A stretch of 64,000 nucleotides of DNA, from assembly GCF_988242995.1 (NCBI RefSeq), contig NZ_OZ547043.1; one strand, given 5' to 3'. Positions 5,137 to 47,949 of the stretch are shown here, in pieces. Below the pieces are notes generated by a model. It did no database searches, was not told the origin of the DNA, and was given only the letters and a program-made list of their open reading frames with translations. Each line of letters opens with the position of its first letter. Position 1 is the first letter of the stretch. The position numbers and the translations under genes were made by a program.

Positions 5137-6348
5137 GTGAAAAACAGAACCCTGGGAAGTGTTTTTATCGTGGCGGGAACCACAATTGGCGCAGGCATGC
5201 TGGCAATGCCGCTGGCTGCGGCCGGTGTTGGTTTTAGCGTTACGTTAATCTTGTTGATTGGGCTTTGGGCGTTGATGTGCTACACGGCGCTATTACTGCT
5301 GGAGGTGTACCAGCATGTTCCGGCAGATACCGGTCTAGGCACGCTGGCAAAACGCTATCTGGGACGCTACGGTCAATGGCTGACGGGCTTCAGTATGATG
5401 TTCTTAATGTATGCTCTGACTGCGGCATACATCAGCGGTGCCGGTGAATTGTTGGCCTCCAGCATCAGCGACTGGACAGGTATTTCAATGTCGGCAACCG
5501 CTGGCGTGCTGTTGTTCACTTTTGTTGCCGGTGGCGTGGTTTGTGTTGGAACATCGCTGGTCGATTTATTTAACCGTTTTCTGTTCAGCGCCAAAATTAT
5601 TTTTCTGGTGGTGATGCTGGTATTGCTACTACCGCATATTCACAAAGTGAATCTTTTAACCCTGCCGTTGCAACAGGGGCTGGCTCTGTCAGCAATCCCG
5701 GTGATTTTTACCTCATTTGGTTTTCACGGTAGCGTGCCGAGTATTGTCAGCTATATGGATGGCAACGTTCGTAAGCTACGCTGGGTGTTTATAACCGGTA
5801 GTGCGATCCCCCTGGTGGCATATATTTTCTGGCAGGTGGCAACGCTTGGCAGCATTGATTCAACAACCTTTATGGGATTGCTGGCTAATCATGCTGGATT
5901 AAACGGGCTGTTACAGGCGTTACGCGAAATGGTGGCCTCTCCGCATGTTGAGCTGGCAGTGCATTTATTTGCTGATTTAGCCCTCGCCACGTCATTTCTC
6001 GGCGTTGCGTTAGGCTTATTTGATTATCTGGCTGATTTATTTCAGCGTTCAAATACCGTTGGTGGACGGTTGCAAACTGGTGCAATTACCTTTCTGCCGC
6101 CGTTGGCGTTTGCACTGTTTTATCCACGAGGATTTGTGATGGCGCTGGGTTACGCCGGTGTGGCGCTGGCGGTACTGGCATTGATTATCCCTTCGCTGTT
6201 GACCTGGCAAAGCAGAAAGCACAATCCTCAGGCGGGTTACCGGGTGAAAGGTGGTCGTCCGGCGCTGGTGGTGGTGTTTCTCTGTGGTATTGCTGTGATT
6301 GGCGTGCAATTTTTGATTGCGGCAGGGTTGTTACCAGAAGTGGGGTGA
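5137..6348 (+). CDS. tyrP: tyrosine-specific permease (GTG start)
   Basis: 403-aa multi-pass membrane ORF recognised as TyrP; GTG at 5137. Confidence 0.9.
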
Positions 6349-6409
6349 TCAGATAGCCTCAAATTCCTTATTGGGTGCCAGAATTAACGCTGACACCCAA
6401 TTTGACCTC

Positions 6410-7075
6410 TTAATGCAGGCAGCACTGCTTAAATTTCTTACCACTACCGCACGGGCAAGGATCGTTACGCCCCGGTTTCTCTTCTGCTTTGATCGGTTGC
6501 TGAACAGCTTTTTCCTGCGGATGCGCCATCCAGTACGCATGTAGATCAAGCGCCGCCAGTCGAATGGCATCTACGCTCTCTTCAAACGCTTCTGGCGACA
6601 TTTTCTCTACCCGCTCGAAGTTTTCCTCAGTACCGTGCAGCGCAATCGCCTCCAGCGCTGGTTTTAACGAATCGGGCAACGTTGACCAGTCAGAAAGTGC
6701 CACGCCCCGCATATAGCCAAAGCACCACTCCTCAACAATCGTCAGCTCGCTGCCATCAACTTCTCGCAAGCCGAATAACGGCTCAAACTGCTCCGGGAAT
6801 TCGTTCAGACGCTCTGCGGTATCGGCCATATGTTGAAAAGCCAGATTCATAAAGCGCGTCATCTCTTTCTCTGACGCCCAGCGCGGCACATAGTCAGCCC
6901 CACCCCACACGGCAACCAGCCACTGTGCCGGTTCAATCTCTTGCGGAGAACTCAACACCGCCGTCAATAAACCGTCCAGCTCCGCCACATCAAGGATGGC
7001 GTGGTCAGTGTTGTATTTGGTCAGAATATCGTCCAGCCATTCCAACTCACTTTCGTTTAACGGTCCCGTTTTCAT
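6410..7075 (-). CDS. yecA: SEC-C metal-binding motif protein YecA
   Basis: 221-aa ORF ending with the [17 protein letters not shown] motif. Confidence 0.85.
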
Positions 7076-7270: not shown

Positions 7271-7357
7271 TGGTACCCGGAGCGGGACTTGAACCCGCAC
7301 AGCGCGAACGCCGAGGGATTTTAAATCCCTTGTGTCTACCGATTCCACCATCCGGGC
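7271..7357 (-). tRNA. leuZ: tRNA-Leu (UAA anticodon type)
   Basis: Reverse complement matches the 87-nt tRNA-Leu, with the extended variable arm and 3' end GGGTACCA. Confidence 0.9.
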
Positions 7358-7369
7358 TCGGGAAGAAAG

Positions 7370-7443
7370 TGGAGGCGCGTTCCGGAGTCGAACCGGACTA
7401 GACGGATTTGCAATCCGCTACATAACCGCTTTGTTAACGCGCC
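7370..7443 (-). tRNA. cysT: tRNA-Cys (GCA)
   Basis: Reverse complement matches GGCGCGTTAACAAAGCGGTTATGTAGCGGATTGCAAATCCGTC...CTCCA. Confidence 0.9.
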
Positions 7444-7497
7444 AAATTCTTCAGGCCTTTCAGCCAGACATCCGCTTGAGGCCGATGTCTTTTAAAC

Positions 7498-7573
<76 letters not shown>

Positions 7574-8329: not shown

Positions 8330-10162
8330 TCAATGTTTCAACGACCAGAAGATCTTTTCTGCCAGACCTTGCGAAATACCCGGCACTTTTGCAATTTCCT
8401 CGACGCTGGCGTTACGTAAACCTTGCAAACCGCCCATATATTTCAACAACATTTGCCGACGTTTTGGCCCGACGCCTTCAATGGTTTCCAGGGAGCTGGT
8501 ATTTTTGACCTTCGCCCGTTTTTTACGGTGCCCGCCAATCGCGTGATCGTGTGATTCATCGCGAATATGCTGGATAACATGCAGCGCGGGAGAATCTGGC
8601 GGCAAACTGAATCCCTCACCTTCCGGCTCAAAGAACAGTGTTTCCAGCCCAGCCTTACGATCTGCTCCTTTGGCAACGCCAAGTAGCAGTGGATGATTTT
8701 TATCCCATGAGACATCCAGTTCGGCGAAGACATTTTTCGCCTGCGCAAGCTGGCCTTTGCCGCCGTCGATAAGGATCACATCCGGGATCTTACTGTCGTC
8801 AATGGCTTTACCATAACGCCGACGCAGCACCTGATTCATCGCCGCATAATCATCGCCCGGCGTGATGCCTGTAATGTTATAGCGCCGATACTCCGCACGC
8901 AGCGGGCCGTTAGCATCAAACACCACACAGGAAGCGACGGTTTGTTCGCCCATGGTATGGCTGATGTCAAAGCACTCCATCCGCTTCACTTCCGGCAATT
9001 TCAACACGCTGGCAAGCGCGGTCAGTCGCTGGTGAACGGTAGATTGCTGCGAAAGTTTGCTGGTTAAGGCCGTCGCCGCATTGGTGCGCGCGAGTTTCAG
9101 ATAACGCGCCCTATCGCCGCGAGGTTTGGTTTGAACATTAATCTTGCGTCCCGCCAGTTCTGAAAGGGAATCGGCGAGCAGCGTTTTATCGCTAAGATTA
9201 AAATCGAGCAGGATCTCACCCGGTAAGGTGCGCATCTGGCTGCCTTGTAAATAGAACTGGCCTACGAAGGTTTCTACCACCTCGCTCAGTTCCGTACCGC
9301 CAGGCACTTTCGGGAAATAGCTGCGGCTGCCGAGCACTTTGCCCTGACGAATGAACAATACGTGGACACAAGCCATGCCCGCATCGAACGCCACACCAAT
9401 AACGTCGAGGTCGTCGCCGGTATTGGAAACAAACTGTTTTTCGGTGACGCGTCGCACCGCCTGAATTTGGTCGCGAATACGTGCCGCTTCTTCAAACTCC
9501 AGATTCTGGCTGGCAGTTTCCATACGGCTAATCAGTTGCGTAAGCACCTGATCATCTTTGCCAGACAAAAACAGGCGCACATACTCGACCTGCTGAGCGT
9601 ATTCTTCTTCACTCACCAGTCCTTCAACGCACGGTCCCAGACAGCGCCCTATCTGATATTGCAGACACGGACGCGAGCGATTACGATAAACACTATTTTC
9701 GCACTGGCGAATGGGGAATATCTTTTGCAGTAGCGCCAGTGTTTCACGTACGGCATAGCCATTCGGGAACGGGCCGAAATATTCACCTTTGGCATGCTTC
9801 GCACCACGATGCATCGCCAGACGCGGGTGGGTATCGCCACTCAGGAAGATAAAAGGATAAGATTTATCATCGCGTAGCAAAACGTTGTAACGCGGCTGAT
9901 AGAGTTTGATGTAGTTGTGTTCCAGCAACAGCGCTTCGGTTTCTGTGTGAGTAACCGTTACATCAATTTGCTGGATCTGGGCGACCAGCGCTTCGGTTTT
10001 GCGCGAAGCGAGGTTGCTACGGAAATAGCTGGAAAGCCGTTTTTTCAGGTCTTTCGCTTTGCCGACATAGATAACCGTACCACCAGCATCGTACATGCGA
10101 TAAACGCCTGGCTGGCTGGTTACGGTTTTTAAAAACGCTTTTGCGTCAAACTGATCACTCAC
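8330..10162 (-). CDS. uvrC: excinuclease ABC subunit C
   Basis: 610-aa ORF with GIY-YIG N-terminus ([24 protein letters not shown]) and C-terminal HhH; recognised UvrC. Confidence 0.95.
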
Positions 10163-24238: not shown

Positions 24239-25444
24239 ATGTCATGGCAGCAATTCAAACACGCCTGGTTGATTAAATTCTGGGCACCCATCCCTGCGGT
24301 CATCGCGGCGGGTATTCTCTCCACTTACTATTTTGGCATTACTGGCACCTTTTGGGCTGTCACGGGTGAATTTACCCGTTGGGGCGGCCAGCTCCTGCAG
24401 CTGTTTGGCGTCCATGCTGAAGAGTGGGGTTATTTTAAAATTATCCATCTGGAAGGATCGCCATTAACCCGCATCGACGGGATGATGATCCTCGGCATGT
24501 TTGGCGGCTGCTTTGCCGCAGCGCTGTGGGCCAACAATGTCAAACTGCGCATGCCACGCAGCCGTATCCGCATTATGCAGGCCATTATTGGCGGTATTAT
24601 CGCTGGTTTTGGCGCGCGTCTGGCAATGGGCTGTAACCTGGCGGCGTTCTTTACCGGTATTCCTCAGTTCTCGCTGCATGCCTGGTTCTTTGCCATCGCC
24701 ACTGCCATTGGTTCATGGTTTGGCGCACGCTTTACCCTGCTGCCCATCTTCCGTATTCCCGTGAAAATGCAGAAAGTTTCTGCCGCCTCACCGCTGACGC
24801 AAAAACCGGATCAGGCGCGGCGTCGTTTTCGTCTCGGGATGCTGGTCTTTTTCGGTATGCTGGGCTGGGCGCTGCTCACGGCGATGAACCAACCAAAACT
24901 GGGGCTGGCAATGCTGTTTGGCGTCGGCTTTGGTTTACTGATTGAACGTGCGCAAATCTGCTTTACTTCGGCGTTCCGCGATATGTGGATCACCGGACGT
25001 ACCCATATGGCGAAAGCAATCATTATCGGTATGGCGGTGAGTGCCATCGGGATCTTCAGTTACGTACAGTTAGGCGTTGAACCCAAAATCATGTGGGCGG
25101 GACCAAACGCGGTAATTGGTGGTTTACTGTTTGGTTTTGGCATCGTGCTGGCAGGCGGCTGCGAAACCGGCTGGATGTACCGCGCGGTAGAAGGCCAGGT
25201 GCACTACTGGTGGGTCGGTCTGGGCAATGTGATCGGCTCGACGATTCTGGCGTATTACTGGGATGATTTCGCTCCGGCGCTGGCCACCGACTGGGACAAA
25301 ATCAACCTGCTGAAAACCTTTGGCCCGATGGGTGGCCTGCTGGTGACATATTTGCTGTTGTTTACTGCGCTGATGTTGATTATCGGCTGGGAAAAACGCT
25401 TCTTCCGCCGTGCGGCACCGCAGACTGCTAAGGAGATCGCATGA
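24239..25444 (+). CDS. yedE: YeeE/YedE-family inner-membrane transporter (sulfur/selenium compounds)
   Basis: 401-aa polytopic ORF recognised as YedE. Confidence 0.85.
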   Translation: MSWQQFKHAWLIKFWAPIPAVIAAGILSTYYFGITGTFWAVTGEFTRWGGQLLQLFGVHAEEWGYFKIIHLEGSPLTRIDGMMILGMFGGCFAAALWANNVKLRMPRSRIRIMQAIIGGIIAGFGARLAMGCNLAAFFTGIPQFSLHAWFFAIATAIGSWFGARFTLLPIFRIPVKMQKVSAASPLTQKPDQARRRFRLGMLVFFGMLGWALLTAMNQPKLGLAMLFGVGFGLLIERAQICFTSAFRDMWITGRTHMAKAIIIGMAVSAIGIFSYVQLGVEPKIMWAGPNAVIGGLLFGFGIVLAGGCETGWMYRAVEGQVHYWWVGLGNVIGSTILAYYWDDFAPALATDWDKINLLKTFGPMGGLLVTYLLLFTALMLIIGWEKRFFRRAAPQTAKEIA

Positions 25445-25674
25445 AAAATATCGTTCCTGATTACCGCCTTGATATGGTGGGTGAACCCTGCCCTTATCCG
25501 GCAGTCGCAACTCTTGAGGCGATGCCGCAGTTAAAAAAAGGGGAAATCCTGGAAGTGGTGAGCGACTGTCCACAGTCGATCAATAATATTCCACTGGATG
25601 CGCGTAATCACGGCTATACGGTGCTGGATATTCAGCAAGACGGGCCGACCATTCGTTATTTAATTCAGAAGTAA
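25441..25674 (+). CDS. yedF: TusA-like sulfurtransferase-fold protein
   Basis: 77-aa ORF with the CPYP motif (EPCPYPAV); 4-nt overlap with yedE. Confidence 0.85.
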   Translation: MKNIVPDYRLDMVGEPCPYPAVATLEAMPQLKKGEILEVVSDCPQSINNIPLDARNHGYTVLDIQQDGPTIRYLIQK

Positions 25675-25681
25675 TCCCTCA

Positions 25682-25706
25682 TTCCCGCTGTGGCCCACAG
25701 CGGGAA
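25682..25706 (+). terminator. hairpin after yedF (ttcccgctgtgg/ccacagcgggaa), no clear T-run
   Basis: 12-bp perfect inverted repeat read directly. Confidence 0.35.
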
Positions 25707-25780
25707 CATCGTTGCCTCTGACACATAGATTTTACCCGCCCCCTCTCCTATTCTTTTCAGTATGATCTCAGGAGGTTTCT

Positions 25781-26449
25781 ATGTGTGGACGCTTTGCCCA
25801 ATCCCAAACGCGTGAAGATTACCTTGCGCTTCTCGCGGAAGATATTGAACGCGATATTCCCTACGATCCCGAACCCATTGGCAGATACAACGTCGCGCCG
25901 GGAACCAAAGTTCTTCTGCTCAGTGAACGTGATGAACACCTTCATCTGGATCCGGTTTTCTGGGGATATGCTCCCGGATGGTGGGATAAACCGCCGCTGA
26001 TTAACGCCCGCGTAGAAACTGCGGCCACCAGTCGTATGTTTAAACCGCTCTGGCAACATGGTCGGGCAATCTGTTTTGCCGATGGCTGGTTTGAGTGGAA
26101 AAAAGAAGGCGACAAAAAACAGCCTTATTTTATCTATCGCGCTGATGGACAACCTGTTTTTATGGCCGCGATAGGTAGCACACCGTTTGAGCGCGGTGAC
26201 GAAGCCGAAGGATTTTTAATTGTCACTGCAGCAGCAGACCAGGGTCTGGTAGATATTCATGACCGCCGCCCGCTGGTTCTGTCGCCAGAAGCTGCACAGG
26301 AATGGATGCGGCAAGAGATTGGCGGTAAAGAAGCATCAGAAATTGCTACCAACGGCTGTGTGCCAGCAAACCAGTTCACCTGGCACCCGGTATCGCGCGC
26401 GGTGGGTAATATCAAAAACCAGGGAGCGGAGTTAATTCAACCGGTTTGA
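25781..26449 (+). CDS. yedK: SRAP-domain abasic-site processing protein (SOS-response associated peptidase)
   Basis: 222-aa ORF starting MCGRF with the catalytic Cys2; recognised YedK. Confidence 0.85.
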   Translation: MCGRFAQSQTREDYLALLAEDIERDIPYDPEPIGRYNVAPGTKVLLLSERDEHLHLDPVFWGYAPGWWDKPPLINARVETAATSRMFKPLWQHGRAICFADGWFEWKKEGDKKQPYFIYRADGQPVFMAAIGSTPFERGDEAEGFLIVTAAADQGLVDIHDRRPLVLSPEAAQEWMRQEIGGKEASEIATNGCVPANQFTWHPVSRAVGNIKNQGAELIQPV

Positions 26450-26843
26450 TAAGCCAGGAGACTATTGATCAATAATACTGCGTCATAAGAAATCTCTATT
26501 AGACAATAGTAGACGCTCCTTCCACATGCGCCACAAGAAACCTCTATTCCAGTGACACAATTACGCCTGATTATTTCCCTAGCCCGGAATATGAATAAAA
26601 ACATCAACAAAGATTAAATTATTCAAACGTTACTGTTGCGTCTGCGGTCGTAGCAACATCCGACGTGGTGATGAGTGTTAAAAGAGACACTCTGATGTTC
26701 AGAGGGGTTATCGCGTTTACGGATCGTGGATGGCAGAAAACTTTCAGGATCAGGTATCCATTTTAAACCAGAAATTGAGTGAGTTTGCCCCATCCATGCC
26801 CCAAGCGGTGAGATTGGAAGTAATTAACAACAGGTTACAAAAC

Positions 26844-27158
26844 CTACACCTGCATGGACATCACTTCCTGATACGCCGCCACCAGCTTATTACGCACCTG
26901 AATCCCCATTTGCATAGAAACTGAGGCTTTTTGCATATCGGTCATCACATCGTTTAACGCCACGCCGGGTTCACCGAGGGTGAATTTTTCTGCCTGCGTG
27001 CGGGCAGCTGTTTGTGTATCGCTAATGCGATCGAGCGCGGCGTGCAGCTGCCCGGCAAAACTAATGGTCGGTTGCGGCAGTGAATCCTGCGCACGCGCAC
27101 TCATCGCCGTAGCCTGTAACTGGCTGATAACCCCTTCAATCCCCTGTATCGCTGACAT
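26844..27158 (-). CDS. fliE: flagellar hook-basal body protein FliE
   Basis: ORF track 26844..27188; start moved to [15 protein letters not shown] matching the known 104-aa FliE. Confidence 0.9.
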
Positions 27159-27372
27159 TTTCGTCTCCTGGATAATTTCTGGTAACAAAGCCTACCAGTA
27201 AGTCAATAAGATAAAGGCGCTAAATAACAACAAAAAAACGGGTTTATTGGCGGATAGAAAAAAACGAAAGCACAAATAATGGCAGCGTCAATTTTTCGAG
27301 TTTGCTGACCCGGGAGTGAGTCTTGTTCCACTTTGCCAATAACGCCGTCCATAATCAGCCACGAGGTGCGCG

Positions 27373-30697
<3,325 letters not shown>

Positions 30698-39370: not shown

Positions 39371-39457
39371 AAATCCCGACCCTGAGGGGGTCGGGATGAA
39401 ACTTGCTTAAGCAAGAAGCACTTAAAAAATTCGTTACACCAGGAAATCTGATGTGTT
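39371..39457 (-). ncRNA. dsrA: DsrA small regulatory RNA (Hfq-dependent; rpoS activator / hns repressor)
   Basis: Reverse complement reads AACACATCAGATTTCCTGGTGTAACGAATTTTTTAAGTGCTTCTTGCTTAAGCAAGTTTCATCCCGACCCCCTCAGGGTCGGGATTT, matching DsrA including its terminator hairpin. Confidence 0.9.
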
Positions 39458-47713: not shown

Positions 47714-47861
47714 GACTCACTCATTTTTTGAACAAATAGATAATTTTTGCGCAACGGCAGTGAATACAGGAAAAATCGTTTTGAGCGATTTTATTTATCT
47801 TTGATATCGGCTTTATTAATTCATTTAATCAATATATTAGCACTGATTACAATTATACCTT

Positions 47862-47949
47862 TTTATTATTCTGTGTCATGATGCTTACGTTATTAGCCTT
47901 TTATCGTCTTGTTTATATTTTTTGGGCCGGCATGATGCCGGCTTTTTTT
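47862..47949 (+). ncRNA. rseX: candidate RseX-like small RNA (5' end approximate)
   Basis: Intrinsic terminator gccggcat/gatgccggc plus T7 run at 47926-47949 with no ORF upstream; I recall RseX mapping between yedR and the yedS porin in K-12 (position and strand from memory, not verified). Confidence 0.35.

Follow-up and report, generated by a model that had tools for sequence, protein, structure and literature searches.

Of the alleles of a variable islet of prophage origin beside fliE, the 394-bp gap between yedK and fliE is very probably the most reduced. It was examined within a 64-kb stretch of chromosome, referred to here as the window. The genes around the gap were identified by family matches, as follows.

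24239-25444, plus strand: yedE, strong family match
25441-25674, plus strand: yedF, strong family match
25781-26449, plus strand: yedK (SRAP / SOS response-associated peptidase), left border of the gap; NCBIfam PRK09951 1.5e-148, Pfam SRAP 4.8e-52
26844-27158, minus strand: fliE, right border of the gap; TIGR00205 1.7e-25
27373-29031, plus strand: fliF, strong family match

The gap occupies positions 26450-26843. Its open reading frames are only 33-64 amino acids long and none has a family hit, which bears out the original prediction of about 390 bp with no credible ORF. The 64-amino-acid frame at 26730-26924 (plus strand) is not a gene; it is an integrase stub read through its lost stop into the antisense strand of fliE. 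The G+C content of the gap is 41.6%, versus 52-55% in the neighboring genes. An Rfam scan of 25600-27400 returned nothing at E<=1, no promoter-like sites were found in the gap, and its terminator-like hairpins (1 observed versus 0.5 expected in shuffled sequences) are at the level of chance. No working gene or RNA is apparent from the sequence of 26450-26827. The junction has no IS homology, and its repeats consist of one imperfect 22-nt direct repeat plus chance-level matches. Rearrangement mediated by an IS or transposon was considered and rejected, as the joints carry no IS element, terminal inverted repeats or target-site duplication, and IS1 was seen in other strains only. Elsewhere in the window, Rfam identified STnc490 (17944-18067), DsrA (39371-39457) and RseX (47860-47949), and tRNA genes were found for Leu/Cys/Gly (7271-7573), Ser(cga) (57545-57634) and Asn (58626-58701). 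This is the usual E. coli content of the chromosomal region.

The fliE side of the gap contains two features of phage origin.

26688-26825, plus strand: integrase pseudogene stub (intG-type), 46 codons corresponding to amino acids 386-431 of a 434-amino-acid tyrosine integrase
26828-26863, plus strand: 36-nt attachment core CAACAGGTTACAAAACCTACACCTGCATGGACATCA, 36/36 identical to the attP of phage IdasGreatGrand

The stub is 83% identical in amino acid sequence to the integrase of Escherichia phage IdasGreatGrand (tblastn, E 3e-22), a protein with the Pfam domains Arm-DNA-bind_2 and Phage_integrase. When phage genomes were searched with the junction only integrase genes were matched. IdasGreatGrand gave the best match (86%, from window position 26680 to the end of the query), and DNA identity of the stub to phage integrase genes was 86-88% from 26680. 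The stub covers the region of the catalytic tyrosine and has neither a start codon nor a stop, the latter having been removed by an 11-bp deletion. The missing 11 bp, ACAAGCATAGT, hold the integrase stop codon; they are absent from the window, K-12 and Ec387 and present in the phage and EC958. The stub is a truncated, inactive homologue of a phage tyrosine integrase, and RefSeq annotates a partial integrase pseudogene over it in an allele that is 100% identical.

Within the core lie the last six codons of fliE and its stop codon (26844-26846). In the alignment, phage and chromosome part at the first base past the core. Stub and core together make up a scar at 26688-26863, which extends 20 nt beyond the end of the gap into fliE. 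An attachment-site scar had been suspected in the junction, and the integrase C-terminal stub with a core identical to attP confirms it. By sequence comparison, an attL-type scar of an old integration, comprising the last ~46 integrase codons and the core, is present in every E. coli allele examined. The window holds one copy of the core and no second copy at <=3 mismatches. Nor was a convincing remnant of the attR or P' arm of the ancient element found in the window or between yedF and the stub. No second att copy marks where the ancient element stopped on its other side, and that end is either lost or unrecognizable. A 25-nt match to the P' arm lies inside the stub (26779-26803, TTTGCCCC motif) and is probably a repeated arm-type site.

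The core varies between strains at FliE Ser101 (26852-26854). This codon is TCC in the window, in the emrE-type alleles described below and in the phage attP. In K-12, ATCC 8739, E2348/69 and O157 the core has GCT in place of GGA, so that Ser101 is AGC. We infer that exchange of the core with a phage would explain this two-base synonymous switch better than point mutation; the switch is probably the footprint of a phage-supplied gene end.

An intact prophage was found at the same site in strain UTAK-1 (NZ_CP157165.1, L105 2142-40600) using the integrase gene as query. This P22-like prophage of ~38.7 kb has inserted at the 3' end of fliE, which it separates from an old stub-espR-yedK allele. 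Its integrase is full length (434 aa), and the gene has 98% DNA identity to that of IdasGreatGrand. One junction consists of the old stub, the core with old-type variants and the phage P' arm. The other consists of the end of the new integrase, including the 11 bp, the phage-type core and the body of fliE. Both junctions of this intact prophage thus carry the core. The displaced core has old-type variants up to core position 31, and therefore strand exchange takes place in the last ~5 nt, with the phage supplying the fliE end. A separate search for lysogens with the IdasGreatGrand P' arm matched lambda-like b-region DNA in a prophage beside dacD, not fliE. Taken together, the junction sequences identify the fliE 3' end as the attB for temperate phages with this particular 434-aa tyrosine integrase, and to judge by UTAK-1 it is an att site in current use. 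The core is the one likely functional element of the interval and should still accept phages whose attP is identical to it.

The original prediction held that K-12 has extra genes here, and this proved right. In MG1655 the order is yedK, yedL, a frameshifted DUF5503/EspR-like pseudogene (yedN/yedM) and fliE; yedL encodes a GNAT acetyltransferase, and 2,210 bp separate the yedK stop from the fliE stop. The published K-12 interval agrees with this gene order (PMC5122947). K-12 does not share the short gap, the finding that was to have overturned the prediction. Of the genes named as missing from the window, yedL and yedN/yedM are indeed absent, but intG is not: its remnant is the stub at 26688-26825. 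The pairwise alignment with K-12 and other E. coli that had been proposed as a check was carried out by blastn, and revealed two indels. Against the K-12 locus (L002) it gave three blocks.

Window 25700-26506: K-12 locus 6001-6809
Window 26510-26573: K-12 locus 7415-7478
Window 26573-27200: K-12 locus 8694-9319

The extra K-12 DNA consists of two segments, one of 605 bp with yedL and one of 1,215 bp with the espR-like pseudogene, separated by a 64-bp spacer. From these joints the left part of the gap was divided into four features.

26484-26506, plus strand: orphan yedL upstream motif CATAAGAAA-N4-TATTAGACAA, vestige of a deleted yedL unit
26507-26509, no strand: yedL deletion joint, where K-12 has 605 bp (L002 6810-7414), located by blastn and breakpoint sequences
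26510-26573, plus strand: 64-bp spacer, closest to the E2348/69 copy (97.9%); contains the repeat copy 26527-26548
26574-26687, plus strand: 5' upstream remnant of an espR-like gene; espR joint at ~26573/26574, where K-12 has 1,215 bp more

In K-12, O157 and E2348/69 the spacer is bounded by the yedL terminator on one side and by the espR-like gene's stop codon on the other. All four combinations of the two segments were seen among strains. Neither is present in the window or in strain 6629, which is 100% identical to it over 26400-26900. E2348/69 has the yedL segment alone; ATCC 8739, strain 163 and F2_81 have the espR segment alone; and K-12 has both. Other alleles are more elaborate. O157:H7 (L005 8863-12901) has a tandem duplication with the order yedL, espR3, int stub, partial yedL, espR4, int stub; the duplicated unit takes in most of the integrase remnant. 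Two genomes (L102 4877-9077 and L103 8001-12200) have triple tandem arrays of espR-like (DUF5503/LRR) genes between fliE and yedK. These paralogues are 50-55% identical to EspR3, and each array gene has on its flanks copies of window 26544-26581 and 26573-26706 that have diverged, the latter to 75-80% identity. In about half of E. coli genomes the DNA from the yedK stop to 26706 is replaced by unrelated emrE-ybcL-ybcM DNA. These alleles, for example Ec387 and EC958, are DLP12-like with IS200/TnpB between yedK and the integrase stub (emrE-type segments are at L006 12793-17272 and L007 12502-15355). They retain an additional integrase piece (aa 210/239-277), and in the ST131 strain EC958 yedK is truncated at aa 142. 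In one strain (L094 6082-7254) an IS1 joins a 5' yedK fragment to a 3' rcsA fragment and the whole fliE-fliR region is deleted. The closest match to the window (99.9%), NZ_CP042901.1 from strain CFSAN061762, has an IS1A inserted within the yedK-fliE junction.

The compact allele was identified in 1,014/5,426 complete E. coli genomes, using a 141-nt probe over both breakpoints that had to be covered >=80% in one piece. espR-like DNA (>=80% of the probe covered) was found in 1,531/5,426 genomes, and any member of the allele family in ~2,700/5,426; all of these counts rest on BLAST coverage thresholds rather than curated typing. A fliE-fliF query found 5,185 genomes with a place covering >=80%. 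Full-length matches to it were all >=97.4% identical among the matches listed, which included no cryptic-clade outgroup among the E. coli genomes searched. Divergence among alleles and array copies reaches 24% in the junction pieces, and is ~15% among espR alleles. From these figures, the locus is old and hypervariable. A scan of genome contigs with YedK provided no Escherichia outgroup (E. albertii, E. fergusonii or cryptic clade) for the yedF-fliE interval. It gave mostly homologues in unrelated contexts, so that the ancestral state is not directly readable. Four enterobacterial yedK contigs in the scan were filed as a Lachnospiraceae MAG (L008), Chryseobacterium (L017), Streptococcus infantis (L060) and Streptomyces morookaense (L076), and probably represent contamination in public assemblies. 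Carriage of the junction on plasmids was discounted, as the plasmid search matched only chromosome-sized records filed as plasmids. A literature search found no description of the compact allele or of fliE as a phage att site.

The evidence that yedL was once present comes from the orphan motif and the position of the joint. CATAAGAAA-N4-TATTAGACAA occurs once in the 64-kb window versus 0 copies expected by chance. Among 105 loci it was found only in the window, in the identical allele (L001) and in loci that bear yedL. In K-12, E2348/69, four loci of E. fergusonii and three of Yokenella, it precedes the yedL ATG by 54-59 nt. As the motif sits before yedL elsewhere and is an orphan here, yedL was deleted from the window. 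The 605 bp of K-12 contain the remainder of the yedL promoter region, followed by its ORF, a terminator hairpin and a further 36 nt. Homologues of yedL in E. fergusonii and Yokenella (79-85% aa identity) occupy unrelated chromosomal positions; therefore E. coli yedL is an imported unit whose native extent can be read in these species. DNA homology between K-12 and E. fergusonii runs from K-12 6771 (window 26468) through the ORF into the terminator hairpin at 7349-7374, and defines a yedL unit of about 6771/6784-7378 in K-12 coordinates. It begins 39 nt to the left of the yedL breakpoint in the window. The deletion is therefore offset from the unit, with ~25-40 nt of the unit kept on one side and ~36 nt beyond it removed on the other. 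An offset of this kind marks a secondary deletion rather than a site as it was before insertion. Two further kinds of yedL-less joint were found. In the ATCC 8739-type joint a ~25-nt repeat is reduced to one hybrid copy, and the joint of the triple arrays keeps the yedL promoter plus the first 19 nt of the ORF. Three different joints mean that yedL was lost on at least three occasions, in different ways. The search for direct repeats, which had also been suggested, yielded one 22-nt repeat near the breakpoint (26479-26500 and 26527-26548, 86%), but both copies survive in the window, and so the repeat did not mediate the deletion. From these comparisons, the window allele has lost yedL through a deletion of 605 bp that left ~25-40 nt of its upstream region behind.

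Loss of the espR-like gene was approached through its joint and its upstream piece. The joint is identical in the window and E2348/69, and to the right of it the two differ by ~9-13%. An identical joint in such divergent backgrounds indicates that the espR-less event is old. Only weak and ambiguous microhomology was found at the breakpoint. The EspR/DUF5503 family (53 clusters) was found only in E. coli/Shigella. Wherever the context was examined, in annotated alleles and two divergent paralogue clusters, it was the yedK-fliE locus. No espR paralogue turned up in another context in E. coli, the listed matches being annotated espR/DUF5503 genes or short matches to the flanks only, and EspR3 had no match among phages (tblastn). 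The espR-like DNA is AT-rich (34-35% GC). Array copies of the upstream piece include the first ~27 nt of the integrase stub; therefore the adjacency of espR and stub predates duplications whose copies are now ~24% diverged. In a tree of the upstream piece, with the paralogous array copies (76% identity) as outgroup, the window nests with the espR-attached copies of ATCC 8739, strain 163 and L103 (96-97%). The alignment also presents the window as a recombinant, E2348/69-like to ~26604, including the espR joint, and ATCC 8739-like from ~26609. The espR-like gene was thus probably deleted from the window allele as well. The polarity of this event rests on parsimony in a recombining region, and the joint could in principle predate espR.

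A history that would account for these observations starts with an ancient phage integration at the fliE 3' end that left the attL-type scar. The DNA between scar and yedK would once have held an espR-like T3SS effector gene and yedL. The espR unit of 1,215 bp may have been lost first, in an event common to the E2348/69-type allele. The most economical path would then lead from such an espR-less, yedL-plus allele through the 605-bp yedL deletion. An exchange on the fliE side would have replaced everything to the right of ~26605 with ATCC 8739-like sequence.

The original prediction offered an ancestral empty site or a clean deletion, and neither fits the junction. In the former the compact junction would be original, and yedL and the espR-like gene would have been inserted later in K-12, O157 and other lineages. 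Some properties of the two segments would suit insertion: both are whole-gene units with intergenic boundaries, yedL clearly derives from another genomic context, espR is foreign in composition, and the espR-less joint is the same in two very divergent backgrounds. The site was not an unoccupied attB, however, for it already contains the integrase stub and phage arm DNA. It also retains part of the 5' flank of the imported yedL unit, the ends of the indel differ from the ends of the unit, there are three different yedL-less joints, and the espR-upstream piece of the window nests among espR-attached copies. We consider an empty site unlikely overall, and for yedL the orphan motif has already refuted it. 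That the whole K-12 islet was cleanly excised or deleted in one event, either site-specifically or through flanking direct repeats, with one repeat or att copy left behind, is hardly credible, even though an att core, an integrase stub and a 22-nt imperfect direct repeat are at hand. What is missing is not one contiguous segment but two non-adjacent ones with the 64-bp spacer kept between them. Intermediates lacking just one segment exist, and the allele is a recombinant. Both repeat copies remain, the sole att core lies at the fliE end rather than at either breakpoint, and the stub itself was not removed.

The 394 bp might also have been kept for a function, as a terminator of fliE or yedK, a small RNA or a regulatory site, and not be neutral debris. 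The compact sequence is 98.6-100% identical among the compact-allele matches listed, there is a terminator-like hairpin on the fliE strand (26704-26690), and a sigma-70 SELEX site has been reported in the yedM-intG spacer of K-12 (PMC3946193). That promoter, TTGCCC-16-CACAAT, falls within 80 bp upstream of the pseudogene start, in DNA absent from the window. The Rfam, promoter and hairpin results given above contain no sign of a noncoding RNA or regulatory element, segments differ by 3-17% between alleles, and the emrE-type half of E. coli genomes dispenses with everything from the yedK stop to 26706. A retained function is therefore very unlikely. Stepwise decay of a prophage islet, with the two genes lost separately, is the reading we prefer.

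YedK is a model bacterial SRAP/HMCES enzyme. It is possible, though we hold it at somewhat under even odds, that the whole yedK-to-fliE interval, yedK included, is the remains of one ancient fliE-integrating prophage in which yedK was cargo just across attP from the integrase. Phage PHB10 (L091 3436-5675) carries, on one strand, int, a 326-bp attP region and then SRAP; its integrase is of the stub's family and its SRAP is 84% identical to YedK (aa). Integration of such a phage would give SRAP(+)...int(+), the same order as yedK(+)...int stub(+) in the window. An SRAP gene is also found at a genome end in Gifsy-2 and a Klebsiella prophage. Among yedK-homologue loci of other Enterobacteriaceae, yedF was within the fetched flanks in 3/79, with fliE there too in Franconibacter only, and 37/79 adjoined umuC. 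In three loci (L027, L028 and L062, ~5440-6660) an integrase C-terminal fragment lies ~300 nt upstream of the yedK homologue. In Salmonella the gene between yedF and fliE is a different one (PMC5122947). The order in Franconibacter pulveris (L080 5689-9260) is yedF, yedK, an acyltransferase-like gene, an integrase stub (aa 358-432) and fliE, a layout like that of E. coli, which stems either from common ancestry or from the fliE att site having been used in parallel. When the attP region of PHB10 was compared with the yedF-yedK spacer, no homology was seen until 9 nt ahead of the SRAP start codon; PHB10 therefore uses another att site. As no attR remnant was found between yedF and yedK, we offer yedK as cargo as a hypothesis. 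If it is true, the last six fliE codons here would be phage-supplied (Ser101 TCC as in attP versus AGC in K-12), and YedK would be a domesticated phage gene, a modest evolutionary curiosity.

As a common structural allele, already annotated, of an islet left by prophage decay, the compact junction is ordinary strain variation. Its importance beyond bookkeeping is small. Annotators should read the yedK-fliE gap of about one E. coli genome in five not as an empty site but as a decayed prophage scar whose joints mark lost genes. With the fliE 3' end live as a phage attachment site, prophages or effector cargo may turn up there. The locus exemplifies stepwise decay: an intact prophage stands at one extreme, a 394-bp scar at the other, and effector arrays and then single-gene alleles in between. 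Its alleles could serve as a lineage marker.

The closest known counterpart is intG of K-12. Its stub and att core are orthologous to those of the window, it is truncated in the same region (aa 383-431 in K-12), and it has the same flanks, yedK and fliE. DNA identity is ~94% from 26573 rightwards, and the window differs in being without the yedL and EspR-like segments. The EspR3/EspR4 locus of O157:H7 is at the same chromosomal position and has the same spacer and upstream pieces; the unit is tandemly duplicated there, and espR is missing altogether from the window. The prophages e14 and phage 21 integrate at icd in E. coli, and the phage provides a replacement 3' end for the gene. The fliE site resembles icd in that the core takes in the final six codons together with the stop, and after integration the fliE end beside the new integrase is the phage copy while the old copy is displaced to the other junction. 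Unlike at icd, the duplicated coding part is only ~20 nt, and the window has a decayed attL-type scar with no prophage. As in DLP12 and other cryptic or defective lambdoid prophages, an integrase remnant adjoins the att site and cargo genes are left over. Decay is near complete in the window, unlike in DLP12, and the sole trace of a phage gene is 46 integrase codons.
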